A stretch of DNA of 64,000 bases from Phage NC-B. Both the position numbers and the translations under genes were made by a program. Location of the stretch: sequence record MK310183. One strand, written 5' to 3'. Within the stretch, counting starts at the first letter, position 1, and every line of letters starts with the position of its first letter. Shown one piece after another: positions 2,559 through 63,309 of this stretch. The notes beneath the pieces were generated by a model. That model searched no databases. It was not told the origin of the DNA and was given only the letters and a program-made list of their open reading frames with translations.

Positions 2559-2562
2559 GATA

Positions 2563-2583
2563 AGCCCCTTCGGGGGCTTTTAG
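2563..2583 (+). terminator. Rho-independent terminator
   Basis: AGCCCC-TTCG-GGGGCT hairpin followed by TTTTA. Confidence 0.6.
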
Positions 2584-2647
2584 GAGTGAAACTGGTGAAT
2601 AAGTAATGAAACTACTATATCCAAAAGGAAAATGAAAGGAGAAGAAA

Positions 2648-2866
2648 ATGAAAATGATGAAACAGGTAACTTATGGTCTAGCTTGCTTAGGGACAGGTTT
2701 TGTGATTTCCACAGCAGTACCTGTAAATGCAGTAGGCTCTCATTCTATTATAGAAGCTCCTGTAGAGAAGCTTAGTTCTCAATGTAAACAAAGGACCATT
2801 CAAAATAATTTGGTTGTTATTTGCCCAGACGCTCAATCTTCAGCTCTGAGAAAAATTCTTCCTTAA
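2648..2866 (+). CDS. Small membrane/secreted protein, possible lysis-associated (adjacent to lysozyme)
   Basis: AAAGGAG RBS; 72 aa with one N-terminal hydrophobic segment (YGLACLGTGFVISTAVPV). Confidence 0.35.
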   Translation: MKMMKQVTYGLACLGTGFVISTAVPVNAVGSHSIIEAPVEKLSSQCKQRTIQNNLVVICPDAQSSALRKILP

Positions 2867-2899
2867 TTGACCTAAAATAACAACAAAAGGAGGTCAAAG

Positions 2900-3391
2900 A
2901 TGGACGCTATCGCATTGCCGCCTGTACAGATGAGCCTAAGTCCGGCTGGTATGGAGTTTATCATGAAGCATGAAGGCATGAGAACTAAAGCCTATAAAGA
3001 CTCCGCTGGAATCTGGACTATATGTGTAGGGGCTACGCGCGATATGAATGGGTATCCAGTAAGACAAGGATTAACGTATTCTATAGAGGATTGTCTAGCT
3101 CTGCTAGATAGAGACACACAAGACTCTGTTCGTGCTACTCAGAAAAACATAAGAGTTCCTATGCTAGCTCATGAATTTGATGCTGTCACTTCTTTCAACT
3201 TTAATGTTGGTGGTGGTGCTTTGTCAACTTCAAAACTTAGGAAAGTGATCAACGGAGATGTGAAGGGTGATGTTTACTCAGAGTTCTTACGTTGGGATAA
3301 GATAACTGTTAAAGGTGTAAAACAGCAGAGTCCGGGGCTTCACAATCGTAGGGTTGCAGAAGCAGACCTATACACCACAGGAAAATATTAA
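2900..3391 (+). CDS. Lysozyme (glycoside hydrolase family 24, T4 e / lambda R-like muramidase)
   Basis: AAAGGAGG RBS; motif HEGMRTKAYKDSAGIWTICVGAT matches the EG...AY.D..G..TIG.G catalytic region of GH24 lysozymes. Confidence 0.7.
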   Translation: MDAIALPPVQMSLSPAGMEFIMKHEGMRTKAYKDSAGIWTICVGATRDMNGYPVRQGLTYSIEDCLALLDRDTQDSVRATQKNIRVPMLAHEFDAVTSFNFNVGGGALSTSKLRKVINGDVKGDVYSEFLRWDKITVKGVKQQSPGLHNRRVAEADLYTTGKY

Positions 3392-3403
3392 TGGAGGTGC
3401 CTT

Positions 3404-4207
3404 TTGGCTATCGAAACAACTGCGGTAGTAACTACCGACTTAAACCCTCTGTACCCACGGGACAGGGATTATCTTTATGAAGGGGCTGCCCAGATACGAC
3501 TGGTCAAACAAGTATTAATTAACACCTTTCCTAACATCACAGAGCCAGTTCAACTTGACTCAGATTCTTTCAACATTCTAGCAAACAAGGTCTCCTTTAC
3601 TGGAGATTCTATGGATGTTGGAGGTTTGATGATCAAAAACTTAACTCCGGGAACAGGAGACAAAGACGCTGTAACCAAAGGTCAGATGGAAGCTTTCATG
3701 TTGAATTGGATGCAGAATAAACTATACCGTATTGGTGCTTACTACATCACTGAAGAAGATATCAACCCCGGAGATTCTAGCTCTCTTGGTTTTGGTTCTT
3801 GGGCTAAAGTAACTGGTGTTATTATGGGTACTGGTGTTGTTAACCCTGATGGATCTGTTCCTAATGCTCAGCGTGTTGAATTCCAAGCAGGTGGCACAGG
3901 AGGTCGAGTATTCAACACAATCCGTGCTGACAATATGCCTCTTACTACAATCAATGGTTCCAGTTTTCAAGTTAGTTCTTATTCTCACTCACATAATATC
4001 ACGATGGGTCGTGGAGATGCTAGCGGTCACAACAGCAGTCCTAATTGGTATAGTCCGGGTGGTGGTTATACTCAGGTAACTGATACTAACACTCACTCTC
4101 ACTCGATTACAGGTTCTGTTAGTTTTGGACGTGATGATGTATCGAGACAACCTATCAACACTTTGCCGCCTTTCAGAGCAGCGCATATCTGGAGACGTAT
4201 TAGCTAA
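3404..4207 (+). CDS. Putative tail fiber / receptor-binding protein with HxH motifs
   Basis: TTG start 6 nt after GGAGG RBS; Gly/Ser/Thr-rich; repeated HxH motifs (SHSHNITMG, THSHSITG) as in metal-binding fibre tips. Confidence 0.4.
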   Translation: MAIETTAVVTTDLNPLYPRDRDYLYEGAAQIRLVKQVLINTFPNITEPVQLDSDSFNILANKVSFTGDSMDVGGLMIKNLTPGTGDKDAVTKGQMEAFMLNWMQNKLYRIGAYYITEEDINPGDSSSLGFGSWAKVTGVIMGTGVVNPDGSVPNAQRVEFQAGGTGGRVFNTIRADNMPLTTINGSSFQVSSYSHSHNITMGRGDASGHNSSPNWYSPGGGYTQVTDTNTHSHSITGSVSFGRDDVSRQPINTLPPFRAAHIWRRIS

Positions 4208-4216
4208 GGAGGAACT

Positions 4217-7200
4217 ATGGCGCTTTATCCAATAAAATCTTTAGGGGCTGTAGGGGTTATTGCTGACCAAGCTCCGACTGATTTAGCACCTAATGCTTTC
4301 ACTAATGCTATCAATGCCCGCTTTGTAGAGCAAAGAGTTTTTAAGACGGGGGGCAATGCCCCTCTTTCTTATGTAGAAGAAGATAAAGAGATTACACCAC
4401 TTTCTTTTATATCAATGCCTTTTGACTACTATAGTGCAGGTAATAGCTTTCTGATTGTTGGTACAGACAAAAAGCTATACAAGCTAACAGATGAAAGTTT
4501 GACAGATATTAGCCGAAAGGTTGCTACTGTCACAAAAAGAGCTTCCGCTTCTATTAAGATATATCCGGTTGTTTCTCAGATTGTTCCTAAAGAAACTTCT
4601 ATTTCAATGAATTTCAATCAAACTAAAGCCTTGGAAGTTTCTATTCTTCCTGAAGATGCTAATAACACAGCTTTAGTTTGGGAGGTTAGTAATTCTTCTT
4701 ATGGTAAAGTAGAAGCTGACACCGAGAACCCTAAAACTGCAACTTTGACGTCTTATGAAAAAGAAGGGAATTTAGTAGTTACTGTATCAACAGCTGATAA
4801 ATCTATTAGTGCTCAGATTGCAGTAAACATCATAGATGGTGATTCTGGTATCTTCTTAAGTCAGGATACAATAACTGTCCGCAAAGGTGGTAACACAACG
4901 CTAACTGCTGTTACTGGAAAAACTCCTGTAACTTGGGTCTCTAGTAATGCTTCTGTTGTGTCTGTAACACCTAATGCTAATACACTGACAGCTACTTTGT
5001 CTGCTAATGGTGAGGGTACTGTAACAATAACTGCTGATAACGGAACTAAGAGTGCTTCTTGTCAAGTTACTGTTATACCTCAGATAGACAGTATCACTCT
5101 GAGTCAGACAAGCGTTCAAATGAGCAGGGGTACTCAGTATGTTTTAACTGCTACGGTTAATCCTTCAGATGCTCCCAATAAAAGCATAACTTGGACTTCC
5201 TCTAATCCTACCATTGCCACAGTTTCTGGAAATAGTACAGAAGCGGTAATAACAGGGTTACTAGCTGGGTTTACTGAAATCACAGCTGTTACTCAAGAGG
5301 GTGATAGATCAGCAACCTGTACAGTGAGAGTTGATTTAGCTGGGAGAATGATGCGAACTTCTGCAATGGCTTTATCAGAACCTGTTGTAGATTCTATACA
5401 AGAAGAAGAAACCAATAATACTCCTATCGAATCAGAAGAGGTTTTATATTTTGTTAATGAGCCATCTGGAGTTGATACCTCAGGAATGTATGAAGGTAAC
5501 AACTTCTATGATTACTCAAACGTCAACGATATGGAAGGTTTTGCACGAGCTGCACTCATGTCCAGCGATACTCCGTTGCAATCTTTATCACTAGATATCA
5601 TCGATGCCTCTCTTGATGTTGGGGAAGATATTGTAATTACAGCCAATGCTTTGCCTGAGGGAGAGTATTTCTATCAGTGGACAGTGGACAAAGCAGGATA
5701 TGTTTCAACCACATCTACTACCGGGAAATCTCTAAAACTGACAGCTATTCGTAAAGGTGAGATCAAAGTTACTTGTACTGCTAGTCAAATGACTCAGAAA
5801 GATTATGATGCTTTTGACGACTATCCTTGGTATCACACCATAATCTCTAACTGTGCAGTGGCTACCACTCACTATGAAACACCACAGGTCAAAGAGTTTG
5901 AATCTGAGTATTTCGTAGATCTTCCGGGATGGGGTGAGCAAACAGTCGTTGATAATGATGGCAACCCTTCTGTTAAGAAATTTAACTGGAAGTGTGAGCG
6001 TATTCGTGCATTCAACAACAGACTTTTTGCTCTGAATATGAGGGAATCTAATGCATCTGGTGTAACTACTCACTACCCTCTAAGACTTCGGTGGTCGAAT
6101 TTCGCTAACGAAAACAAAGCTCCATCTCTTTGGGATGATTATGCTTATGATCGTTTAACAACTTCAGACCTATCAGCAAACATCGTTGGTCAAACTGAGG
6201 CTTTGGAAAATGGGTACGCTGGGTATATAGATTTAGCAGATTCTAACGGAAGCTTGATTGATGTACTTCCTCTGAAAGATTACCTTTTTGTTTACACGGA
6301 GTTCGAAACCTACATTGGCTCTCCAACCAATAACACATATCAGCCCCTTATGTTTAAGAAGCTGTTTAATGACTCTGGCATACTTGCTCCTGAGTGTGCA
6401 GTTGAAGTCGAAGGTGGACACTTCGTAGTAACTCAAAATGATGTGATCTTACATAATGGTGCATCTAAAAAATCTATAGCATCTAACCGAGTCAAGAATC
6501 TTCTCATTAATGAGATCTGTCTAGTAAACCCTCTAGCTACTAGAGTTCACCTACACCAAGACAAGAAAGAGGTTTGGGTTTTATATGTAGGTCCGGGAGA
6601 GCCTAAAGAGAGTTTTGCTTGTAATAAAGCCGCTGTTTGGAATTATGAGTTTGACACTTGGTCTTTCCGTACAATACCATATGCTCAGTGTATTGGGTTA
6701 GTCGATCCACCAGTTCTTGAGAGAGGTCCAATCTGGGCAGATTTTCAAGAGATCACTTGGGATGATCCCTCTATTAACCAATTAGTCTGGAGAAAGGATG
6801 CTAATAACTTCCGTCAAAGGATTACAATAGTTGGCTCTTTCCTGAAGGGATTCTATCAAGTGGATGTTGGTGCTCTGGACTACATCTATGATAGAACCAA
6901 TGATAGGATTATAGAAAAACCTTTAGAAATGAGGCTAGAAAGAACTGGTATTGATTTTGATAATGTCACTAATGAGTGGAATCAAAAACATATTAATAGA
7001 TTTAGACCTCAAGTTACTGGTACAGGTACTTATACTTTTGAAGTCGGTGGAAGTCAATTCTCAAACGAGTATGGACACAATCACTCAACTAAAGAGTTTA
7101 GGGTAGGCTCAGATCGTCATGTATCCGTGAGACTGAACCATCCATACCTATTCTATAATGTTATAGATAATGATGTTAACAGTAATGCTTCTATGAATGG

Positions 7201-26441: not shown

Positions 26442-28286
26442 TTAGTGAGTGTGATTCCAGTTTAACCCAATCTTACAGTCAGATGCCAGAGGGCATTCCA
26501 TTTTGAGATACTCACCTGCTTTACGAACACACTCTTCAGTGAGGGTACGAAGTTTGTTAACATCGTCACGATGTACAGTGAACTGGCCTTCATCATGCAT
26601 GTCAATAACCTTCGCACAACGAACACCATCACGCTCAATCCATTTATTAAGGAATAGCATTGCATACTTCATAACAATCGCCCCAGCGCTCTGTAAGAGA
26701 GTATTTAAGGCTTTATGAACCATAACCTTTCCAGTTGCATCTCTTCTCATTGTAATACGACGTCCATCCACACCGTAGATGTATCCACTTTGTGCTTTCT
26801 CTGTCATACGTTCAATAAGAATTGCAATACAAGGATTCTCTGCTAAGAATCTTGCCCTCATGACAGCTCCTTCATCAGAGCCACCGCCTACGATGCTTCC
26901 TAACTTAGCGTCACCAGCTCCGTAGTTGAATGCGTAGATAAATGTTTTAGCATTATCACGAGTAGGAAGGCCAGCAAGTTTTTGGTTATGTGAGTGAATA
27001 TCTCCTTCTAAAAGAATATCTCTGTACATAACAGCAGAAGCTAGACCGCGTTCAGCTTCTCGTTTCTTAGCCGGGTTGTTTTCTCGCTCTGCTTCAGCGA
27101 GCATCTCACGACATTCTTTAATAAGGTAGTGAGCTAGCATCCTCAGCTCAAGACCAGAGCCATCGTAACCTAAGAAGATTTCACGACCAGCAGGAACATA
27201 GAACTTATAGGCACCTACAGGTTTGTCTTTCTTGCCCGGTTTTCCCACTTCGTAGATAATGTTAGTACCCTTTCGTACGTAACACCCATCAGGGATATGG
27301 TTGGTAATGATGAAAGGATGGTTATGACTATCGTCTGAGGAATAGTCAGATTGAAAAAGACTGCGGCACTCGTGACCAAACAAACCGCGAGAAGGAATAT
27401 TAACAACAATGCGATGTTTAAAACGAAATGTCGGAGTAGCGCAGCTATTAGCTTCGGCGGACAACTTACCATCTTTACGTTCCTTGTCGATAAGCCCGCT
27501 AATCAAACCTAGCCTGTGAGCCGCTACAACGCGTCTCTTAAGCAAACTTCCTACACCCCCTAGCTCACCCCCAAGCCCTTCTTCAAGAGTCTCCTCAAGG
27601 TTTGTAGGGGCTGTAGGCCACTTGTTTGATGTAGCCAAAGCTTTTTTGATTTCATCAAAGGTTACAGGCTTCTTCCTATTAGGGTTAAGACCTAAACCGC
27701 TGACATAAGCTTTCATATAATTGACAGTGTGATAACGGAAGTGCTTATCCAAAAACCTTCGGATATCAGCATCTATCATCTCTGCTGTCTGTTTCTCTTT
27801 AGCGTTACCTCGAATCCAAGCAGAATACCATGCAGAGTATGTACCATACTTCTTCATAGCTTTACGAATTTCAAAAGTATTCCAAGGTTTCTTAGAATAA
27901 TTCCACTCTGGAGGTATAAAACCTTCATCCATCAAGGCTTCTTTAATACGTGCATCTTTTGATGGGTCAAAATCTACATACTCAACGCAAGTAAACGCCC
28001 CACCGATATCTTCTCTTTTAAGACCAACCCTATCGCAATAGAGCTGAGGCCACTTCTGTAAAGCACCTGACTTCTTAAAAGGCTTAGCATAAGTTGAACC
28101 ATCCACCCGCATTTTAGGGAGGAGAGGAATCAGTTCTTTATCAATATTGACAATAATCTCTTTGAGAAGGTGAACAAACCACCGAGCGTTTCTTCTGTTG
28201 AAGTTGACTCCATGCTTCGCTTGTTTTGAGATTATATCAGCGACTGTCATCTCCGTTATGAAAGGTAACTTATCAGGGTTATCCAT
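26442..28286 (-). CDS. DNA polymerase, family A (T7 gp5-like polymerase domain, no exonuclease domain)
   Basis: ATG at 28286 with AAGGAG RBS; motif A GYDGSGLELRMLAHY, motif B PTRDNAKTFIYAFNYGAG, motif C VIDMHDE. Confidence 0.8.
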   Translation of the reverse strand: MDNPDKLPFITEMTVADIISKQAKHGVNFNRRNARWFVHLLKEIIVNIDKELIPLLPKMRVDGSTYAKPFKKSGALQKWPQLYCDRVGLKREDIGGAFTCVEYVDFDPSKDARIKEALMDEGFIPPEWNYSKKPWNTFEIRKAMKKYGTYSAWYSAWIRGNAKEKQTAEMIDADIRRFLDKHFRYHTVNYMKAYVSGLGLNPNRKKPVTFDEIKKALATSNKWPTAPTNLEETLEEGLGGELGGVGSLLKRRVVAAHRLGLISGLIDKERKDGKLSAEANSCATPTFRFKHRIVVNIPSRGLFGHECRSLFQSDYSSDDSHNHPFIITNHIPDGCYVRKGTNIIYEVGKPGKKDKPVGAYKFYVPAGREIFLGYDGSGLELRMLAHYLIKECREMLAEAERENNPAKKREAERGLASAVMYRDILLEGDIHSHNQKLAGLPTRDNAKTFIYAFNYGAGDAKLGSIVGGGSDEGAVMRARFLAENPCIAILIERMTEKAQSGYIYGVDGRRITMRRDATGKVMVHKALNTLLQSAGAIVMKYAMLFLNKWIERDGVRCAKVIDMHDEGQFTVHRDDVNKLRTLTEECVRKAGEYLKMECPLASDCKIGLNWNHTH

Positions 28287-28302
28287 CACCCACTCCTTAT
28301 AG

Positions 28303-28656
28303 TTATTGGTATATTAAATCTGTGAATGCTTGGTTGTCTTCAACAATATCTAAAGCTTCATATGAATCAGCCAATTCATCCACATAAAAGACTGCTGGAA
28401 TATCTTCTGCTCGTTGTCTACGAGCTTCTCTCTGTTCGTTGCTGTTTCTCTGAACCTGTGCAAGTTTCATACCCCACACCTGCTCATATAACTCTGGATA
28501 CTTGTCACTAACCACTACATAGTTTCGAGCTGATTGGTTTCTATTAATCTTCGCTGTCAACTCAATAAACTGGCGAAACTCTTGAATAGAGAGGTTGTCA
28601 TGAATATTATCCCACTTGAGAACGCAGTGACGTTCTAGGCGTTGAGGTACTGGCAT
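28303..28656 (-). CDS. Hypothetical protein
   Basis: GGAG RBS, ATG; 117 aa. Confidence 0.45.
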   Translation of the reverse strand: MPVPQRLERHCVLKWDNIHDNLSIQEFRQFIELTAKINRNQSARNYVVVSDKYPELYEQVWGMKLAQVQRNSNEQREARRQRAEDIPAVFYVDELADSYEALDIVEDNQAFTDLIYQ

Positions 28657-28659
28657 AAC

Positions 28660-28917
28660 TTACTCCACTGTAGGGAATGGTTTTAGGTTGTTCATGGCTG
28701 TACGAACATCAGCACAGATTTCAGGGTCACGATAAGAGAGGAATTTACCATCCTTACCACGAATCATTACATTAGTCCGTGCTGTTTTATTAGGCAATAA
28801 AGAAATCCCTTCAATAAGATGGTTGGTAGGGTGTTGTCCTTGATTAACCTTGTAGTCATGAGTCTGAGCGTCACCATTAAAGAGATGATCACGAATTTGG
28901 ATTAAGCTAATCTTCAT
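28660..28917 (-). CDS. Hypothetical protein (tandem paralog)
   Basis: ATG at 28917 coupled (TAATATG); shares KTARTNV.IRG.DGKF.S.RD....LKPFP with the next gene. Confidence 0.4.
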   Translation of the reverse strand: MKISLIQIRDHLFNGDAQTHDYKVNQGQHPTNHLIEGISLLPNKTARTNVMIRGKDGKFLSYRDPEICADVRTAMNNLKPFPTVE

Positions 28918-28918
28918 A

Positions 28919-29170
28919 TTATGCACCAAAGTTAGGGAAAGGTTTCAGATTTTCAATAGACTTAGCAATACGCTTAGGAACATCCTTATCACGGAAGGAG
29001 ATGAACTTTCCATCAGGACCACGAAGGGCTACATTAGTACGAGCTGTTGTTTTGTTAAACTGAATCATCTCAACAGAGCTTGTAACATTTTCTACAGGAA
29101 AAGTATAGCTCTCAGTTGTGTTCAGAGAAGGGAGGAAATCAGTTACAGTGATGTAAGTTACTTTAGACAT
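28919..29170 (-). CDS. Hypothetical protein (tandem paralog)
   Basis: ATG at 29170 with AAGGT RBS (track GTG start lies in the terminator hairpin). Confidence 0.4.
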   Translation of the reverse strand: MSKVTYITVTDFLPSLNTTESYTFPVENVTSSVEMIQFNKTTARTNVALRGPDGKFISFRDKDVPKRIAKSIENLKPFPNFGA

Positions 29171-29196
29171 ATTTATTACCTTAGGTTCTATAAAAG

Positions 29197-29222
29197 AAAA
29201 GGCCACCCGAAATGGGTAGCCT
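29197..29222 (-). terminator. Rho-independent terminator
   Basis: Minus-strand GGCTACCC-ATTTC-GGGTGGCC hairpin followed by TTTTCTTTT. Confidence 0.5.
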
Positions 29223-29226
29223 TATA

Positions 29227-29541
29227 TCAACTTGAGCTTAAAGCTCCTTTGCGACCGCCTGCTGATTTTCCAGCACGATCTCCACTTTTGCCGCCGTTCG
29301 AGCGATTTCGAGAGACTGATTCAACACGTAAGTTACTTGACGCATTAGAACCTCCCGACTTGATTGATCGTTTGTGTCCAACATCTTTACCTCGGACAGC
29401 AGCTTTTCCATCGCGCTTTTCAACGATGCGACGTGCACGGTGGCGCTGAGCATCTCCGCTCTTGCTACCAACGCCGGTCTCACCCCTTGCGATTGCAGTT
29501 CTTCGTTCTTGTGCATAATCACGTTTCGCCTTATCGGTCAT
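29227..29541 (-). CDS. Highly basic Gly/Ser/Arg/Lys-rich protein (possible nucleic-acid binding)
   Basis: AAGGAG RBS before ATGATG; 104-105 aa; an alternative overlapping frame 29238-29522 also exists. Confidence 0.4.
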   Translation of the reverse strand: MTDKAKRDYAQERRTAIARGETGVGSKSGDAQRHRARRIVEKRDGKAAVRGKDVGHKRSIKSGGSNASSNLRVESVSRNRSNGGKSGDRAGKSAGGRKGALSSS

Positions 29542-29576
29542 CATAACTCCTTAATATATCAGTGTACACTAAGGAG

Positions 29577-29585
29577 TATACATTA
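29577..29585 (-). promoter_or_regulatory. Candidate phage-sigma promoter element TAATGTATA
   Basis: Minus-strand motif ~33 nt upstream of start at 29541-29544. Confidence 0.35.
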
Positions 29586-29588
29586 TGT

Positions 29589-30326
29589 TTATGATTTTTC
29601 AGATTCCATTGCTTTAACAATAGCTTTACAGAAACCTGAACGAACAATATCATCCGATTCGCCATCTACTAGAGCGGCAAATTCAAATAACTGGTGACGG
29701 TAGATGAAATCAGTAGCCCAATCAAGACCGCTCTCACCACGCATGTCGTGCTGGTTAGTGTCCCCCATACAGAACATCTGAGAGGTTTCACCAAGACGTG
29801 TCATGATTGAATATGCTTCATCAGGAGTAGTGTTCTGGAACTCATCAACAATCACGATAGCATCGTTGAACGAGCGACCACGTAGATATTCCAGAGGTAC
29901 GAACTCAATATTACCATTACCTACTTGACATTCGTAGAAACCTTTACCGTAGCGCTGAGTAATAACATCAACGATTGGCATTAGGTATGGTTCAAACTTC
30001 TCACGAAGCCCACCGGGAAGTAATCCAAGACTATTACCCATACCAACAGCAGGTCGGCTTAGGATAATCTTCTCAATCTTCCCACTCTTCAGAGCATCAA
30101 TCACTGTAGAAGTGATTACGAAGGTCTTACCACAACCAGCAGGAGCATCTGTGAATACAACCTGTTTGGTTTTAATTGCATCAAGCAGCTCACTCTGGAA
30201 TTGGTTCTGAGGTACTACCGGCTTAGCAAGAACTACTTCTTCAAATTCCCGCTTTCCTTTCTTGGTGACGAGAGCTTCACGACGTAATTCTCTCCGTGAT
30301 GCTTTCCGAGATTCTCTACGACTCAT
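29589..30326 (-). CDS. phoH: PhoH-like ATPase
   Basis: GGAGGT RBS; Walker A DAPAGCGKT, Walker B IVIVDEFQN, CMGDTNQ motif. Confidence 0.7.
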   Translation of the reverse strand: MSRRESRKASRRELRREALVTKKGKREFEEVVLAKPVVPQNQFQSELLDAIKTKQVVFTDAPAGCGKTFVITSTVIDALKSGKIEKIILSRPAVGMGNSLGLLPGGLREKFEPYLMPIVDVITQRYGKGFYECQVGNGNIEFVPLEYLRGRSFNDAIVIVDEFQNTTPDEAYSIMTRLGETSQMFCMGDTNQHDMRGESGLDWATDFIYRHQLFEFAALVDGESDDIVRSGFCKAIVKAMESEKS

Positions 30327-30504
30327 TTCCTACCTCCGTGTTCTTCATATAAGAAGCTACAGGATTTACACTCTGAGCAATGGATACCTATAACCTTAAT
30401 TTCGACAAACTTCTTATTCTTCCCTTTAGTCGGGGAGCCTTTGGCAAGCTCCCGTATTACTTTCGAGTCCAAATGGAGAAGAGTTGATTCACATTTAAAA
30501 CATT

Positions 30505-30825
30505 TCAGATTGATTTGTCCTTATGTAAACGGTATACTTCAGTAGCCATACAAGCTATACGCTCGTCATGAGGAAGATGCATACCAGTGGAGCCATTCCA
30601 TCCATTGAACTCTGAATCAAAGAATCCGATAGGCTCAGGATACATCTCTTGCAAAGTGGTTAAGTCATCGGCCACTTGTTGCCATTTGTCATCAGACCAG
30701 ATTGGGTCATCCAACCAATAATACAAATAGGAGTGGATAAGCATCTGTGTTCTGTATCGTTTAATCACTTCAGCAGGACTAATCTCGTTTCCGTTACCAG
30801 TCCTAAATGTATTATCGTTGATCAT
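30505..30825 (-). CDS. Small protein resembling NAD-dependent DNA ligase adenylation subdomain Ia
   Basis: HSYLYYWLDDPIWSDDKWQQVADDLTTLQEMYPE parallels LigA N-terminal H.YLY...D.P...D..YD.L...L..LE...PE. Confidence 0.35.
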   Translation of the reverse strand: MINDNTFRTGNGNEISPAEVIKRYRTQMLIHSYLYYWLDDPIWSDDKWQQVADDLTTLQEMYPEPIGFFDSEFNGWNGSTGMHLPHDERIACMATEVYRLHKDKSI

Positions 30826-31020
30826 TTAGATAACCTTGTGCTCGTAGATGCTGGGGTTGAAATAATGCAACCAGTTTATATATTGTTTCTGTTCAAGGTA
30901 GTGTCTGCAATCATGACAAAAAGCATGACCCAAACCTGTTTCCTCGTTCAGCTTGAAGTTGATAAGAAGCTTCTGCTTTTGACAGAAGCTACATGCTTTA
31001 GTGGGCTTCACGTAGTGCAT
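30826..31020 (-). CDS. Putative zinc-ribbon protein
   Basis: Two CxxC pairs (CSFC, CHDC); start ambiguous, track ORF extends to 31134 overlapping thyX. Confidence 0.25.
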   Translation of the reverse strand: MHYVKPTKACSFCQKQKLLINFKLNEETGLGHAFCHDCRHYLEQKQYINWLHYFNPSIYEHKVI

Positions 31021-33711: not shown

Positions 33712-33720
33712 TATACATTT
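33712..33720 (-). promoter_or_regulatory. Candidate promoter element (variant AAATGTATA)
   Basis: Minus-strand motif ~40 nt upstream of start 33672. Confidence 0.3.
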
Positions 33721-49754: not shown

Positions 49755-49867
49755 ACAACCTCTTCTTTGAACTTAAAAAAGGACTCTCCTAAGAGAGCCA
49801 AGCTTTAAGGCCAATTAAATAGATATCACCCAATATCTGTGGATAACCTGCTCTTAAAATATTCTAT

Positions 49868-49999
49868 CCGACGGATGTTCGAGGATTACTCCTCTCCCTA
49901 GCATCGGCCCCATACGGGTAAGATTAAATTAAGTTTAGGTTAGTTGAGCCAGAATAGCTCACATAGCCCTCTGATACTCACAAGGGCTATAGATGTTAC
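49868..49999. repeat. ~130-bp intergenic repeat element, copy A, with 8-bp-stem hairpin
   Basis: Near-identical to 55319-55439; hairpin ATAGCCCT(12 nt)AGGGCTAT at 49963-49990. Confidence 0.6.
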
Positions 50000-50247
50000 T
50001 CTGTGGCTCCGTCGAATCGGAGGATTGCTGTTGGAACAGGAATCACCACCATGTCAATCTCTAAACGGAAGAGATGACCTGTACTTAGCTGAACTGCTGT
50101 TACAGGTTTAGCGATACCCCCAACAGAAGCTGAGGGGATTCGAATAAAGAACTCCCCCGGATATTCAGTTGCACGGAATACATCTCCCGGTGTCATGTCC
50201 TTTACTTGGACAACCAATTCAGGAGGTTGTTTATTAGCAATTTGCAT
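49996..50247 (-). CDS. Hypothetical small protein, PGDVF paralog family
   Basis: 83 aa; motif VKDMTPGDVFRATEYPGEFFIR and C-terminal VIPVP. Confidence 0.45.
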   Translation of the reverse strand: MQIANKQPPELVVQVKDMTPGDVFRATEYPGEFFIRIPSASVGGIAKPVTAVQLSTGHLFRLEIDMVVIPVPTAILRFDGATE

Positions 50248-50507: not shown

Positions 50508-50921
50508 TTAAACAACAAATTGGAACGCTTTGTATCCAAACTTGTAAGAGAAGTCGTGCTTGAATTTCACTACACGACCACGATCACGGAAAGATTTCAG
50601 ACGGCTAATAAAGCCAGCCATCGGCTCAGGGTCAATAGGGCTACGAATCTTCATAGCTACAGAGTGCAGCTTGAAGCGTTTACCAGTGCTACAGGCCATC
50701 ATCACATACTCCATACGAGTAGTCCAGATGTTGAGCACCATGCTTGTTTTCTCCGCTGACCAACCAGTCTTGCGGGCGATTTCCTTGTGGACATTAAGCT
50801 CCAAAGGAAGAGGGAATTGCTTGTTGAATGAAGCCGGATATAGCTTGACCAGAAGGTCAATGTTTTCTTTATACGTTAAATAAGCCAATTTCTTGCTTAC
50901 GTTGGGGAATTTCCCAGCCAT
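50508..50921 (-). CDS. Possible ProQ/FinO-domain RNA-binding protein
   Basis: ATG at 50921 (track start is TTG at 50936); weak resemblance to ProQ N-terminal domain. Confidence 0.3.
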   Translation of the reverse strand: MAGKFPNVSKKLAYLTYKENIDLLVKLYPASFNKQFPLPLELNVHKEIARKTGWSAEKTSMVLNIWTTRMEYVMMACSTGKRFKLHSVAMKIRSPIDPEPMAGFISRLKSFRDRGRVVKFKHDFSYKFGYKAFQFVV

Positions 50922-51120
50922 TTTTTGAAGCTCCAAAACAGCGCCGAAAAGAGAGGCGTCATAGTAGCTAAAGGGAGGAGAGAAGAGGGCTTATTTACTT
51001 GCCTTTTTCTGTCCGTTAATGTACCAGATAACTGAGCCATCAGGCTGTCGCTGACCAAAGCCTTTCAGGTTAACCATTTCTTCTTCAGAGTAGGCACGTT
51101 TTCTCACTGAGTTTCTCCTG

Positions 51121-51378
51121 TCAATAGAAGGTGTGTGTAGAGTCATCGTTCATACATAACCAAACGAAGAAGACAATCACACAGAAAGCAATAACACCGA
51201 GAATTGCAAGGATTATAGTGTTAGCTAATGTGATATCTAACACGCTTTGCAGATACATAAAGAACTGTACGACACCACATATCATTAGCACGACACCAAC
51301 AACAATGAGGAGCCAATATGTGCAGAGAAGGGCTGCATCCAATAGTGACACATATTTTGGATGATCTTTACGTTTCAT
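51121..51378 (-). CDS. Small membrane protein (2-3 TM; holin-like candidate)
   Basis: 85 aa, highly hydrophobic with charged N-terminus. Confidence 0.4.
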   Translation of the reverse strand: MKRKDHPKYVSLLDAALLCTYWLLIVVGVVLMICGVVQFFMYLQSVLDITLANTIILAILGVIAFCVIVFFVWLCMNDDSTHTFY

Positions 51379-51634
51379 TAACCTTCTCCACTAAATCCAG
51401 AGTTGCTGATTCAAATACAACACCAACTGGCATATTAGGTGCCATATTACGAACGTACCCACTTTGCATAGACACGGCTCGAGAGTATTCAGAACCGTTA
51501 GAGCTTTTGTTTACCTTCATGTAAAGGGTTTGTTCTTTATCTTCTTTAAGGGTAAAGAAAGAGCCGGGAAGAATCCCCTGAACAGTCAGAGGGATATCTG
51601 CAACATGAGTCTTATTGATAGTAAGAACTGTCAT
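51368..51634 (-). CDS. Hypothetical small protein, PGDVF-family-like
   Basis: AAGGA RBS; motif GILPGSFFTLKEDKEQTLYMKV. Confidence 0.4.
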   Translation of the reverse strand: MTVLTINKTHVADIPLTVQGILPGSFFTLKEDKEQTLYMKVNKSSNGSEYSRAVSMQSGYVRNMAPNMPVGVVFESATLDLVEKVNET

Positions 51635-51637
51635 TGC

Positions 51638-51892
51638 TTATTCCTTAATAATTGCTTCAGCTTTAATAGGAATAACAGCAACATCTTTACGAGGCGCTGT
51701 CGCTCGACCTGTGTTAAGACAGGCTACAAGTCTATGCTCGTCCGCACCCTTAATGCACAAGCGAGTTGAGAACTCGGTAGACAGTAAGATGTACAAATCA
51801 TCATCTTCACTGTTAGAGTACATGAAGCAATCCCCAAGACGCAGAGCGCTGAGTGGTATTGCGTTCTTACTGGCTGGTTTGTTAACTTTCAT
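51638..51892 (-). CDS. Hypothetical small protein, PGDVF paralog family
   Basis: ATG at 51892 with AGGTGG RBS; motif LSALRLGDCFMYSNSEDDDLYIL, C-terminal AVIPIK. Confidence 0.4.
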   Translation of the reverse strand: MKVNKPASKNAIPLSALRLGDCFMYSNSEDDDLYILLSTEFSTRLCIKGADEHRLVACLNTGRATAPRKDVAVIPIKAEAIIKE

Positions 51893-53061: not shown

Positions 53062-53137
53062 TGGTGCACCCTACAGGACTCGAACCTGTAACCAACGACT
53101 TAGAAGGTCGCTGCTCTGTCCATTGAGCTAAGGGTGC
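53062..53137 (-). tRNA. tRNA-Arg (anticodon UCU)
   Basis: 76-nt cloverleaf on minus strand: acceptor GCACCCT/AGGGTGC, D-stem GCTC/GAGC, anticodon loop CTTCTAA, T-arm ACAGG-TTCGAGT-CCTGT, 3' CCA encoded. Confidence 0.8.
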
Positions 53138-53944: not shown

Positions 53945-54249
53945 GACTTTGCAGCCTCCATCATTTTATTCATTTTAGCCACACCTTTACAGATAAGAGG
54001 CATGAATTCATCAGCCAGTTCAGTGGATAAAAGTTCAAGTCCACCTGACTTAATACCATTCACCGCATTCTCAACGTCATCCGACAACAACATCATTGTT
54101 AACCATGGGGATTTTATTCCCACAGTAAAGCCCGGTTCGTACCGTGAGTGACTATAGGTGAAATCTAAATGGGTCACACCGGGCATTTTAGACATTTGAG
54201 CACGGATGACTACCTTAGGATTGCAGCGAGTTGAAGATGAAATTGTCAT
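53941..54249 (-). CDS. Hypothetical protein
   Basis: ATGA overlap; 102 aa. Confidence 0.4.
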   Translation of the reverse strand: MTISSSTRCNPKVVIRAQMSKMPGVTHLDFTYSHSRYEPGFTVGIKSPWLTMMLLSDDVENAVNGIKSGGLELLSTELADEFMPLICKGVAKMNKMMEAAKS

Positions 54250-54497
54250 GGCTTTTTAATCTCAATCTGAACGTTGACGACGAATACAGTATGGTTTGCA
54301 CTGTAAACTGAAGTGCCTATGATTGGCTTATCATCACTGAGGATTTCAACAGCGTGCTCAAGGTTAATCTTCAGATGAAGACGCCCTGATTCCATGAAGA
54401 AATCACCAGCACGTATCTCACCGAACTTAGCTGGCACACCGATAGAGGGTATCAGTATGTCAGTGCGACCTTTACGGTCAAATAAACGATTGAACAT
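54246..54497 (-). CDS. Hypothetical small protein, PGDVF-family-like
   Basis: AGGGG RBS; motif GEIRAGDFFMESGRLHLKI. Confidence 0.4.
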   Translation of the reverse strand: MFNRLFDRKGRTDILIPSIGVPAKFGEIRAGDFFMESGRLHLKINLEHAVEILSDDKPIIGTSVYSANHTVFVVNVQIEIKKP

Positions 54498-55130: not shown

Positions 55131-55318
55131 AACGTTCTCTCTCTTTATTGATGGAGGCAGGATTGCCAGTTAATATAAAGGGAAGCCCTACACGTTAAGG
55201 CTTCCGCTTGTACAAACTGTCGAGAACTCTCTACCCCTAGATTGTTCTCTATCCCAAACCGATACATACCCCTACATATCGGAATGCCATTCGAAAATTA
55301 ACAGGTTTTAGTCTATCA

Positions 55319-55439
55319 CCGGATGTTTGAGACAAGTCTCTCCCTAGCGGTGAGCCATATGGCGTTGAGATTATATTTAATTGAGGAACATCCTCACATA
55401 GCCCTCTGATAAACACAAGGGCTATAAGTCGATGTTACT
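55319..55439. repeat. ~130-bp intergenic repeat element, copy B, with hairpin
   Basis: Near-identical to 49868-49999 (shared GGATGTT.GAG, TCTCCCTAGC, CCATA.GG, CTCACATAGCCCTCTGATA..CACAAGGGCTATA, GATGTTACT). Confidence 0.6.
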
Positions 55440-55659
55440 TGTTGGTTAGTCGTGCGTTAGGTACAGGTCTGACTACAGTCGATTTACACTCAGAATCACG
55501 CTTACCTGTATAAAGGTTAACAAAATAACTTTTGTTTTCACCATAACACGCAGTACGCATGTAATATTGAGTTTCGTTATAGTTAAACTGGAAGACTTCA
55601 CCCGGATTTAGATCACCGAGAGTTACAACCTCTGGTGTATTATCAATATCAATTTTCAT
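55435..55659 (-). CDS. Hypothetical small protein, PGDVF paralog family
   Basis: GGTGG RBS; motif LGDLNPGEVFQFNYNETQYYMR, C-terminal VVRPVP. Confidence 0.45.
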   Translation of the reverse strand: MKIDIDNTPEVVTLGDLNPGEVFQFNYNETQYYMRTACYGENKSYFVNLYTGKRDSECKSTVVRPVPNARLTNK

Positions 55660-55890
55660 TTAACCACCAATATTAGTCACTTGAACATCAAATACAGGGA
55701 TAACTTCATGATGTTCCTGTAACTGGAATAGTGTTCCCTGACGAAGACCAACCACACGATGCATATCATTCAGGCAGGTGTCTGTCTTTAGATAGAGGTG
55801 TTCAGAGTTAGTTGGTAGACGGAATACATCACCCGGACGTAGATCGCTGAGTTTTTTAGTAACAACTAAAGATGGGAGATTAATTTTCAT
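55660..55890 (-). CDS. Hypothetical small protein, PGDVF paralog family
   Basis: Motif LSDLRPGDVFRLPTNSEHLYLK, C-terminal VIPVFDV; TAATG coupling. Confidence 0.45.
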   Translation of the reverse strand: MKINLPSLVVTKKLSDLRPGDVFRLPTNSEHLYLKTDTCLNDMHRVVGLRQGTLFQLQEHHEVIPVFDVQVTNIGG

Positions 55891-56990: not shown

Positions 56991-57018
56991 ATAAAAAAGC
57001 CCCATCCGAAGACGGGGC
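56991..57018 (-). terminator. Terminator-like hairpin 1 of 3
   Basis: Minus-strand GC-rich hairpin followed by TTTTTTAT. Confidence 0.4.
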
Positions 57019-57071
57019 GACCTGAAAGAGTGAACATGACCTCACTCATTTAAGAATCCTCGTAAAGACTC

Positions 57072-57098
57072 TTAAAAAAGAGGCCTCGTTAAAGGCCC
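57072..57098 (-). terminator. Terminator-like hairpin 2 of 3
   Basis: GGCCT...AGGCC hairpin followed on minus strand by TTTTTT. Confidence 0.35.
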
Positions 57099-57175
57099 GG
57101 TCAAATGACCATCCAATAGGGATTGAACCATGCCAATGATTCACAAAGGGAGTTCCCTTTAGGCATCACTAGCTA

Positions 57176-57200
57176 CGCAAAAAGCCGCACAAAGGCGGCA
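57176..57200 (-). terminator. Terminator-like hairpin 3 of 3
   Basis: GCCGC-ACAAAG-GCGGC hairpin followed on minus strand by TTTTTG. Confidence 0.4.
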
Positions 57201-57255
57201 GACAAAGACGCTCAAGAAGAGCGTCATAGTAGTTGACCACTGGTACAGAAGGGGC

Positions 57256-58421: not shown

Positions 58422-58528
58422 GGTGTTTATCTCTTTTTAGTTTCTTTGATTAGCACACTGAATCAATGCACTAGTAAAAGAAAAAGGCGCTACCCTTTCG
58501 AATAGCGCCTCATGTGTTTTATTGTTGG

Positions 58529-59431: not shown

Positions 59432-60344
59432 GATATTCACCTTTCAATTGTAAACGCACTATGCGCCGCTCTCTATGAGCTATTCAAGTCACAATGACTT
59501 AACACTAATCACTAACTGCTAGTAACCAGTGGTAAATCAGGCGGTCTTATCAGGAGTTAACCTTGCCGCCTAACTTGCCGTGATGTTTCATCTGGTGGAT
59601 TCAACTAATCGCTATAAACAAAGCCGATTTGCCAGCGATGATCAATCATCACAATAAGGCAAGCGCGTCCATCTCTAATTAGCTAAATTTCTAGCCGATG
59701 GCATTACTATTTACTTTGCTTTCGCTTCGTGATACCCTTTTATATCAACTCTCTAAACCTGCTTATCGCCTACTAAGGGAAAGCATATGGTAAAGAGTCA
59801 TTGACCGCCTAACACTTTGGCGTTTGATTATCTCTCTCACGATTTACTACACTACATGTTTATGTACTCACATCGCTATTGATGTGTATCAAAACACTCA
59901 CTTAGTAAATACTCACGCTTAAACCTTATTGTTAAATAGCAATTTGCTACTCTTTAACCCCCTCCCGCCGCTCGCTATTGAGCGTTAATTCGTCGGATTT
60001 GACTACCCCGATAAACGTCTATTATTGTAGCACTTTACTAGCACCGCCGCCGCTACCCTTTAACCGTAGGCGATTAGCTTAAGCCTTGCATGTACTCAAT
60101 AACTTCATTTATCAGTGGTGTCGTTTCCAGTAAGGGATTGTAAAGCGGTTTCCTCTGATACTCTAGAGCGCCTTACATCGTTTTATCTGGCATAGCTTGC
60201 AATGGTTATTATTGCTCACCATGTTCAACCGATATAGGAAGAAGTTTAAATTGTTAAAGAGCGGTAAATCTATCGAAGTGCTTTCTCACTTCCCGCCACC
60301 GTTCGCCGTGGTTTCACGTTTCACTAGTTGCCTAGTGAGTGCTC

Positions 60345-60373
60345 ATTATGAATCATCCTGTTTAGCGTGTCAA
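60345..60373 (-). promoter_or_regulatory. Sigma70-like promoter P-A (-35 TTGACA, 17-bp spacer, -10 CATAAT)
   Basis: Read on minus strand; A-tract upstream of -35. Confidence 0.5.
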
Positions 60374-60512
60374 CCACTTTTTAAATCTTTTTCTCGTCTA
60401 TTCTTTCGAATGACCAGTTAATCGCGTATTGGATTAACAAGATTGTAAGCGGTTGCGCTTAACTTTCTGATTCGTATTTTTAAAGAGCGGTGTTTCTTAC
60501 TGCTTAGTGAAC

Positions 60513-60540
60513 ATTCTATCAGAACGTTTCACCTTGTCAA
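60513..60540 (-). promoter_or_regulatory. Sigma70-like promoter P-B (-35 TTGACA, 16-bp spacer, -10 TAGAAT)
   Basis: Read on minus strand; A-tract upstream of -35. Confidence 0.5.
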
Positions 60541-60672
60541 CTCTTTTTATCGTCTTCTTTTTATTCTCTTCCCTTATCTCGCGTGAATCTTTGCGAAAGG
60601 GCTAGACGATAAATTGTTAAAGAGCGGGGCACTAAGTGCCGGATGTTTTAGGTCATCGCTGACCATGTGCAC

Positions 60673-60700
60673 ATCTTATCATAGTGATTCGACGTGTCAA
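60673..60700 (-). promoter_or_regulatory. Sigma70-like promoter P-C (-35 TTGACA, 16-bp spacer, -10 TAAGAT)
   Basis: Read on minus strand; A-tract upstream of -35. Confidence 0.45.
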
Positions 60701-60761
60701 CAACTATTTTTCGATTAATGCATCTTGATAAACTAGCGACCATTAAGGCCGCTAACATACC

Positions 60762-60962
60762 TTAGTTCATACGTTTAAAGGTTAAATCTTTATCCGTACT
60801 TACCAGCGATAACACTGCAATAGCTTTGCCTTTATCGGCATCGGCTACCATCTCTTTTGCCTGCTGTAATGTACTACCGACTATTCTCATAATCATGTTA
60901 GTAACGTTAATGCTAGTGCAAGTGATTTGCGTGTCTTTGCTTGAGAAGGTGTAAATATTCAT
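60762..60962 (-). CDS. Hypothetical protein
   Basis: ATG at 60962 with GAGGA RBS (track start is TTG at 61001); 66 aa. Confidence 0.4.
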   Translation of the reverse strand: MNIYTFSSKDTQITCTSINVTNMIMRIVGSTLQQAKEMVADADKGKAIAVLSLVSTDKDLTFKRMN

Positions 60963-61322
60963 TGATAAATCCTCATTATGGCATGGTTGGGAGTTTATCA
61001 AGATACACTAATCAGATTCTTAAAGAGCAAGGCTAAACATCTAGCCTATCAGGAGGTAATTTACTGCGTCACGTCCTGACAAGATTCAATATACACTATC
61101 CTAAAACCGTTGCAAGCCTTTTTCTAAAATAATTTCACTTTCTTTTGTGTACAGAGGAACGCGCACACGAATAACATCAGGGGAGGAAGAAAACAAGCCC
61201 TATAATCGAAATCTAGGCACGTAGGAAGCATCCTAGCGAGCTAAACAGGGGCAAGATGTGCAATCACCTTAGAAATGAAAAAAGCGCCTCAAAAGGGCGC
61301 TTAGGGAAGTTTTACGGATTGT

Positions 61323-63122: not shown

Positions 63123-63309
63123 TTCATTAATCCTTTCGGTTGATGTGAACTACAAACTACGATTGCAACTATATATTAAAGGAAAAACCTGTCAACTACT
63201 TATTTTCAAACTATTTCATAACTCACTGAATATAAAAGGAATTTAATTTACTAAACTTACTTGTTCAGAGATACAGCTTACCAAATAGATGTTATTTTAT
63301 AACACTTAC

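Follow-up and report, generated by a model that had tools for sequence, protein, structure and literature searches.

Two copies of a non-coding repeat in the early region

The window, i.e., the complete stretch of 64,000 nucleotides that was analyzed, derives from a phiEco32-like (Kuravirus/Suseptimavirus) podophage of E. coli. Phages of this type are a model for the takeover of host transcription by means of a phage-encoded sigma factor (gp36) and a protein that binds the polymerase (gp79), and they are present in phage therapy collections. The region of interest is 90–94% identical to E. coli podophages of the phiEco32 group, e.g., ECBP2, SU7 and Bas86-88, and was identified by comparison with annotated relatives as the leftward early region of phiEco32-group genomes. 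Since every real gene between 46 and 60 kb of the window is located on the minus strand, the repeats were read on this strand.

A reading based on the sequence only had reported two related non-coding stretches at 49868–49999 and 55319–55439. Both were found to be present, and matches of a covariance model place the core of copy A at 49864–49994 (−) and that of copy B at 55312–55429 (−). The similarity proposed earlier was confirmed by a global pairwise alignment of the cores with 95 identical positions (85% of 112 ungapped columns, 72% of the longer copy), the score of which (47.5) is far above the values obtained for 500 shuffles (−6.7 ± 4.4, maximum 10). The homology persists in a weaker form on the 3′ side through hairpin P6, and the upstream flank differs between the copy types and is not conserved.

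The two elements begin 4 to 8 nt past the stop codons of small genes of the PGDVF family, located at 49996–50247 (copy A) and 55435–55659 (copy B). The following features, all on the minus strand, were determined for copy A:

49775–49994 (−): whole element with structured core, 3′ hairpin, A-tract, intrinsic terminator and U6 (covariance model 118.8 bits; MFE z = −2.8; terminator scan)
Stop codon 49996–49998 to next start codon 49754 (−): limits of the untranslated spacer
49962–49991 (−): helix P1, 10 bp, bulge, 3 bp (98.4% paired; double changes in 7 of 10 pairs)
49945–49961 (−): helix P2, directly abutting P1 (read from alignments)
49844–49942 (−): three-way-junction domain closed by the long-range helix P3 and enclosing P3a and P4–P5 (RNAalifold)
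49937–49942 with 49844–49849 (−): helix P3, UAACCU with AGGUUA, plus an inner A/U-rich part (RNAalifold)
49909–49918 (−): hairpin P3a, CCC-GUAU-GGG with the conserved RUAU tetraloop (100% paired)
49868–49907 (−): P4 (CCGAUG/CGUCGG), internal loop (CUAGGGA at 49895–49901 opposite GAACAUC at 49874–49880) and P5 (49881–49894)
49821–49838 (−): hairpin P6, AGAUAU-UGGGUG-AUAUCU, with a G-rich loop
49775–49808 (−): intrinsic terminator with A-tract UUAAAG (49803–49808), G+C-rich stem of 7–8 bp (49781–49799) and U6 (49775–49780)

The corresponding features of copy B are:

55172–55429 (−): whole element with core, P6, P7 and terminal hairpin (covariance model 116.9 bits; MFE z = −4.1)
Stop codon 55435–55437 to next gene (−): untranslated spacer
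55312–55429 (−): core with P1 (55397–55426), P2 (55382–55396), P3a (55354–55363) and P4/internal loop/P5 (55316–55353)
55259–55282 (−): hairpin P6, 10-bp stem, GGGG loop within GUAGGGGUA (98.3% paired)
55222–55249 (−): hairpin P7, 11-bp stem, loop carrying CUAGGGGUAG (97.0% paired; double changes in 4 of 11 pairs)
55172–55205 (−): terminal hairpin, GGAAGCC...GGGCUUCC followed by CUUUAUAUU, a weak terminator-like site

The shared core has a length of 118–131 nt and consists of five helices, a 7×7 internal loop (CUAGGGN/N′AACAUC) and the RUAU tetraloop. The hairpin ATAGCCCT...AGGGCTAT, which had been reported with an 8-bp stem, is real and corresponds to helix P1, the actual length of which is 10 + 3 bp. 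From the conserved blocks noted at the same time, TCTCCCTAGC is the complement of the invariant 5′ strand of the internal loop (GCUAGGGAGA) and CCATAYGG is the small hairpin P3a. The object is thus larger than first described: the one hairpin and three blocks that had been seen are parts of a multi-helix minus-strand RNA of about 220–270 nt that ends at a terminator.

The 3′ parts are less uniform than the core. The distance between core and terminator varies from about 50 to 150 nt, and the weak terminal hairpin of copy B is variable, with a different form in phiEco32-type copies. In copy A, the A-tract UUAAAG pairs with the U-tract in both the MFE and the consensus folds. P6 and P7 of copy B show an identical hairpin loop, UAGGGGUA, while the internal loop carries CUAGGGA. 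The motif UAGGG is found four times within about 160 nt of copy B, among only 18 occurrences on the whole minus strand. The TAGGG pentamer is generally rare on this transcribed strand in comparison to the plus strand (18 vs. 47).

Covariation analysis of the predicted RNA fold

For the analysis of the fold, 33 distinct copies were gathered with the exact internal-loop pattern and model R1; the sources were phage records, IMG/VR, metagenomes and genomes. Standard base pairs are formed in 95.5% of the cells of these 33 sequences, compared to 83.2% for column shuffles and 34–49% when the pairing partners were slid. Compensatory double changes were found in 16 of 28 pairs, a number that was reached in none of 500 shuffles. 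Fitting to the model biases alignment A4 towards the structure; raw MAFFT alignments give the same substitutions. Folding with covariation in related phages, named in the sequence-only reading as a way to check the element, therefore speaks for a conserved structure.

Pairing is maintained by different sequences in the individual copies. Depending on the copy type, P2 is formed by GAGCUA/UGGCUC, GAGGA/UCCUC or GAGUUA/UAACUC. In P3a (variants CCC/GGG, GCC/GGC and GGC/GCC), two of the three pairs are exchanged with frequencies of GC:18/CG:15 and CG:25/GC:8, and P4 shows double changes in four of its six pairs (variants CCGAUG/CGUCGG, UCACCG/CGGUGA and UCGGUG/CGCCGA). The outer part of P3 is invariant and is thus neither supported nor contradicted by covariation; the inner part carries double changes between the kuravirus and the Grimontviridae copies. 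P6 and P7 together are paired to 97.6%. G-U, G-C and A-U alternate at two pairs of P6 in copy B, and P6 of the copy A type is shortened or missing in some Grimontviridae copies.

The 14 letters of the internal loop are invariant in all 33 sequences except for one position per strand next to P5. In the individual lineages, these two positions (N/N′) were observed as A.G, C.A or A.A, never as C.G, and thus behave as a covarying non-Watson-Crick pair. Small ribozymes, many of them known from phage contexts, typically combine invariant loops with covarying stems. With its invariant loop and junction nucleotides and its freely covarying stems, the element could accordingly be a self-cleaving ribozyme, or else an RNA-processing site as considered in the sequence-only reading, which would cut the polycistronic early transcript between gene blocks. 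This transcript must be processed anyway, because the gene of a tRNA-Arg is located between the two copies. However, no ribozyme match was obtained in Rfam 15 even at E ≤ 10, and core motifs of the hammerhead, twister or HDV-like type could not be identified. The longest uninterrupted helices comprise 10–11 bp, which is too short for a classical RNase III substrate, and nothing in the element specifically favours an RNase III site. Cleavage is thus quite improbable as the function. The tRNA-Arg (anticodon TCT) is encoded at 53062–53137 (−) in the same early transcription unit as the two RNA copies.

U-G pairs are frequent in the alignment (e.g., UG:26, UG:19 and UG:17). Read on the opposite strand, these pairs would turn into A-C mismatches, which assigns the fold to the transcribed minus strand. 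The UNCG tetraloops (UUCG, UACG or UCCG) that replace the tip of P1 in relatives likewise fit only the transcribed strand. A protein-coding reading was not supported, as no minus-strand ORF of at least 25 amino acids is present in 49775–49995. A smaller ORF was considered and rejected: it has 19 codons in copy A and only 4 in copy B, and the substitutions follow the paired helices.

The two repeats are very probably paralogous copies of an undescribed structured RNA domain, located in minus-strand spacers that are transcribed by the host RNA polymerase within the sigma-70 early unit of a phiEco32-like phage. There is good support for their being functional RNAs with a defined structure on the early transcript.

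Distribution and conservation of the element

The element was found in about 100 kuravirus/suseptimavirus records, with both paralogs in all records inspected. In phiEco32, the copies are located between genes 91/90 and 113/112. The Salmonella phages 7-11, SE131 and pSal-SNUABM-01 of the Grimontviridae carry a single copy that is syntenic with copy A. Conservation in related genomes, on which the sequence-only reading had made its proposal depend, was therefore observed beyond the phage group of the window.

A further match was obtained in a phage contig binned with a Flavobacterium MAG (L042 = JBOFGJ010000684.1, 3023–3140, 37% G+C), which scored 65.7 bits with a model built without that sequence. 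In 8 kb of this contig, no protein shared with the kuravirus or Grimontviridae early regions could be found using tblastx, BLASTP and Pfam. The Flavobacterium copy ends in a hairpin and a U-rich tail without a strong U-tract, and its similarity to the 3′ part of copy B consists of a single 13-nt block, AUAUGUAGGNGUA, which is no more than suggestive (p ~0.03). The presence of the same fold without a shared protein suggests an ancient, mobile RNA module, whose partner would either exist in widely different bacteria or be brought along by the phages.

The RNA copy of this contig is surrounded at 1978–5668 by an array of small proteins (62–91 aa), many of them combining a GD(I/V)V motif at the N-terminus with an (E)EENE tail at the C-terminus; homology of these proteins to the PGDVF family could not be shown. 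Other candidates from the searches were discarded. The exact-pattern matches L006, L007/L016/L029, L015, L018 and L024 were treated as chance, those scored (L018, L024 and L029) reaching 12–17 bits. A looser pattern scan of IMG/VR (TATGG...CTAGGG...AACATCC) resulted in 52 loci, of which the new ones have no flanking helices and were also judged to be chance matches.

The RNAs appear as islands of conservation in the sequence comparisons. The identity to phiEco32 is 92% for core A with its 3′ part, whereas it is 62–71% for those flanking genes that have not been replaced. For SU7, the RNA is 99–100% identical and the upstream gene 69%. The flanking genes have been exchanged between phages with the element retained. 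The earlier view that the repeat is functional and not a mere remnant of a duplication can thus be maintained: compensatory changes keep at least seven helices, the conservation exceeds that of the flanking genes, and the fold recurs in a second phage family and in the Flavobacterium contig.

The retention of an element between swapped genes would also fit a role at the DNA level, either as a DnaA-dependent origin or roadblock or as a conserved linker for recombination between early-gene cassettes, similar to T4-type mobile regulatory cassettes. The only perfect DnaA box (TTATCCACA) of the 64-kb window is located in copy A at 49838–49846 (−), and it is invariant in the kuravirus A and Grimontviridae copies. 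However, this box overlaps the 3′ strand of P3 and is missing from copy B and from the Flavobacterium copy. A cluster of boxes was not found: the number of boxes with at most one mismatch (24) is at chance level (17.7 ± 4.1), and the cumulative skew shows no turn. Unlike the T4 PeSL cassettes, the element has no promoter, and a site in duplex DNA would not be expected to show compensatory changes that include G-U pairs on one strand. A DNA-level role is for these reasons highly improbable.

Transcriptional context and terminators

Strong sigma-70 promoters on the minus strand were identified at 63195, 60700, 60540 and 60373, and the next phage-sigma motif in a promoter-like context is located at 33719. 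This layout agrees with the map of phage SU10, in which CDS69-125 are classed as early (PMC4281155). Within the early unit, the distance from the promoters at 60373–60700 is 5 kb for copy B and 10.4 kb for copy A, both of which are located downstream. Neither a sigma-70-like promoter inside or beside the copies nor a phage-sigma AATGTA motif near them was found.

In the first 10 kb of the early unit, terminator-like hairpins were detected at 58511, at four sites in 57018–57225, and at 55205, 54793, 52042 and 49799. The following 16 kb of larger genes contain no convincing terminator. This series closes with the strong terminator of copy A, and the next start codon follows about 20 nt behind its U-tract. 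All 14 A/G sequences, which come from two phage families, have retained this terminator, including the A-tract and U6 and with a double change at the top pair, and the site is annotated as a terminator in SU7 and phage 7-11. Since the terminator is conserved and no promoter is present there, the genes beyond it must be expressed by read-through. Copy A is positioned at the boundary between the small early genes and larger enzyme and replication genes, the block beyond it extending from gp90 through the amidoligase, glutamine amidotransferase, primase and polymerase genes.

The four hairpins in 57018–57225 (−) are arranged in tandem within about 210 bp (57225, 57199, 57098 and 57018), each with a T-run, and the next gene follows about 50 nt further on.

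In the early promoter region, five copies of the rrn/lambda-type boxA sequence GCTCTTTAACAA were found at 59929–61028 (−), of which two are perfect (60251–60262 and 60614–60625) and three carry one mismatch. One boxA is located about 75–110 nt downstream of each of three tandem sigma-70 promoters, and the cluster is also present in phage Bas87. The motif suggests that early transcripts may recruit the Nus-factor antitermination complex of the host. No mention of boxA together with phiEco32 was found in the literature searched. The sequence between the last early promoter and the first early gene (59441–60340, −) is an ORF-free leader of about 900 nt with a folding z of −7.2 compared to shuffled sequences, and additional structured RNA may be present in it.

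A conserved multi-helix domain with an invariant loop, followed by a terminator, a ribosome binding site and an ORF, as found for copy A and the Grimontviridae copies, is also the arrangement of a riboswitch. The core would then be the aptamer for a widespread small molecule and the terminator the expression platform; a universal ligand would fit the occurrence in phages of two bacterial phyla. On manual inspection of the copy sequences, however, an antiterminator pairing that is mutually exclusive with the terminator was not seen to be conserved. Some copies have complementary segments, GAGAG/CUCUC, in P5 and in the terminator's 5′ arm, which other copies do not retain. In addition, the spacer between domain and terminator is variable (50–150 nt) and holds an extra hairpin, the downstream genes differ by copy and lineage, and the UAGGG loop motif with its three repeats is more reminiscent of protein sites. 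A riboswitch is therefore very unlikely.

Neighbouring proteins and a possible stable RNA

It had been proposed that each element directly follows a PGDVF gene. This holds for both copies of the window; in phiEco32, a gene of another family is located upstream of copy A. A PGDVF member precedes copy B in the kuraviruses, the Grimontviridae copy and copy A of the window. The two PGDVF proteins next to the copies share 33% identity (BLASTP E = 4e-7) and have diverged much more than the RNA. PGDVF-like paralogs are encoded by five or more small early genes on the minus strand (49996–50247, 51368–51634, 51638–51892, 55435–55659 and 55660–55890; perhaps also 54246–54497). Their motif is (P/A/S)G(D/E)(V/F)F, and the predicted fold is an SH3/KOW/Tudor-like beta-barrel. 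Proteins with this fold often bind RNA or RNA polymerase, and the match here is a generic one.

Three genes upstream of copy A, a putative FinO/ProQ-domain protein is encoded at 50508–50936 (−), with a PF04352 match of E = 1e-5 and 25.9 bits (cutoff 27). Its homolog in the Grimontviridae reaches 30.6 bits. Homologs are found in the SU7-like clade, the Grimontviridae and in Erwinia and Aeromonas phages, and not in the phiEco32-type kuraviruses.

This gene is of relevance for the main rival explanation, according to which the element is a stable non-coding RNA of about 220–270 nt derived from the 3′ UTR of the upstream early message. Transcripts that end at the terminator, possibly trimmed at the 5′ end, would leave a discrete structured RNA that binds a FinO/ProQ-type chaperone or sequesters a protein via its UAGGG loops, and that acts in trans or stabilises the upstream mRNA. 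The ligands of the ProQ FinO domain include many mRNA 3′ UTRs and are characterized by an intrinsic terminator with at least four U and an A-rich motif (PMC7367173). Copy A has such a terminator, a U tail (U6) and an A-rich motif, and the putative FinO/ProQ-domain protein is encoded nearby; a FinO-domain protein is also encoded by the Grimontviridae phages. The four UAGGG motifs of copy B and its two identical UAGGGGUA loops furthermore resemble protein-sponge RNAs.

Several observations argue against a stable RNA. The tail of copy B is only weakly U-rich, and a strong U-tract is missing in this copy as well as in the Flavobacterium copy. A promoter of its own was not found for the element, and, as described above, the upstream flank is not conserved between the copy types. 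The FinO-domain gene was identified in only about 21 of roughly 100 kuravirus records, whereas both RNAs are present in all of them. No target complementary to the G-rich loops was found in the phage; for the UAGGGGUA loops, the sole other site (10975) is located within a coding region and was treated as chance. As an explanation, a stable RNA is less likely than not.

A candidate element for the control of termination

The explanation favoured here, with a probability of roughly 0.4, is a factor-binding cis element that controls elongation and termination and gates read-through of the copy A terminator. P1 and the abutting P2, P3a and P4–P5, closed into a three-way junction by the long-range helix in copy A and followed by hairpins with G-rich loops and by a hairpin with a U-tract, would form a binding platform, with the invariant internal loop and the repeated UAGGG loops as the probable contacts. 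The partner could be the elongating polymerase itself or a small protein of phage or host origin. The bound state would set the share of early transcription that stops at the downstream terminator and the share that enters the next gene block, in the case of copy A the block described above that begins with gp90. Observed directly were the structure with its strand, position and conservation, the terminators and the lack of promoters; the binding partner and the effect on termination are inferred.

The endings of copy B and of the Flavobacterium copy, each with a hairpin and a U-rich tail, are consistent with such a cis element. The varying distance between core and terminator argues against it, as do the weak and variable terminal hairpin of copy B and the five terminator-like hairpins upstream of this copy (58511 and 57018–57225), which are not preceded by an element. 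Manual inspection of the copies also revealed no conserved pairing as an alternative to the terminator, the rrn-type boxA sequences of the early leaders may already provide for antitermination, and the model detects no relative in the put region of HK022. Compared to control of termination and the stable RNA, the readings as a ribozyme or processing site, a riboswitch or a DNA-level site are less likely.

To our knowledge, no RNA element appears in the published transcription maps of phiEco32-like phages, which show promoters and a few terminators. The position of an RNA under such strong constraint, where the small early genes are followed by those for enzymes and replication, suggests that a control point of the early programme has been overlooked. 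The element is compact, with clear invariant nucleotides and a simple terminator adjacent to it, and its function is therefore directly testable.

Comparison with known RNA elements

At the gathering score, Rfam 15, which includes the hammerhead, twister, twister-sister, pistol, hatchet, HDV-like, riboswitch and EAR families, identified only the tRNA-Arg in the window. In permissive searches (E ≤ 10; E ≤ 5 in one run), copies of the types A, B, G and Flavobacterium had no matches beyond weak ones attributable to chance, of which TarB and STnc100 in copy A were driven by the terminator. In the literature, no paper on an RNA element in phiEco32-like phages and no RNA-end data for kuraviruses were found. 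The element thus is an orphan RNA family, previously undescribed but of a familiar kind, namely a conserved structured motif in a phage early operon. Like other orphan motifs from phages and metagenomes, such as Rfam-type candidates, it is known from covariation, conserved loops and genomic context alone; unlike these, it is not contained in Rfam 15. The promoter-early stem-loop cassettes of the T4 type differ from it, as neither copy has a sigma-70-like promoter in or next to it.

With 3′-UTR RNAs bound by ProQ or FinO (cspE-3′, malM-3′ and FinP), the element shares the position right after a stop codon (PMC7367173), and a putative FinO-domain gene is nearby in the phage studied here. Those ligands are recognised mainly via their terminator, whereas here a large invariant upstream domain is the most conserved part, and most kuraviruses that carry the RNA have no FinO-domain gene of their own.

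The bipartite antitermination system conAn of Gram-positive conjugative plasmids includes a structured RNA just downstream of a small protein gene in a terminator-rich operon (PMC8191782). The element described here has a similar location, directly 3′ of the gene of a small protein within an extended operon rich in intrinsic terminators. In contrast, conAn is located at the start of the operon and comprises an RNA of 260–600 nt, and the link to the PGDVF gene is broken in phiEco32.

In phage HK022, the put elements (putL and putR) are about 70 nt long, form two stem-loops near the early promoters and act on terminators at least 10 kb away (PMC9378689). As in the phage studied here, there are two similar copies per genome, which are transcribed by the host polymerase in early operons with terminators and fold into RNAs with non-canonical pairs; put acts in cis on the β′ zinc-binding domain of RNA polymerase without a protein and suppresses terminators (PMC9378689), and the polymerase is considered as a possible partner here as well. 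The core of the present element is larger (118–131 nt), with five helices and additional 3′ hairpins, and the distance to the promoters is 5 and 10 kb. A search of HK022 27000–31000 with model R1 and filters off gave a best match of 10 bits (E = 0.07), with no similarity to put. A put-like role would also be less necessary, because the boxA leaders and Nus-factor antitermination may already serve the early unit. That the element founds a new class of phage RNAs acting directly on the host transcription machinery or with an intrinsic activity, be it a put-like but unrelated RNA by which the polymerase is made to pass terminators or a new ribozyme or riboswitch class, is unlikely; if true, a universally conserved target would explain its occurrence in phages of both Proteobacteria and Bacteroidota. 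For the control of termination proposed above, HK022 put and conAn2 are precedents, which show that RNA elements in the terminator-rich operons of mobile elements can act as modules in cis.
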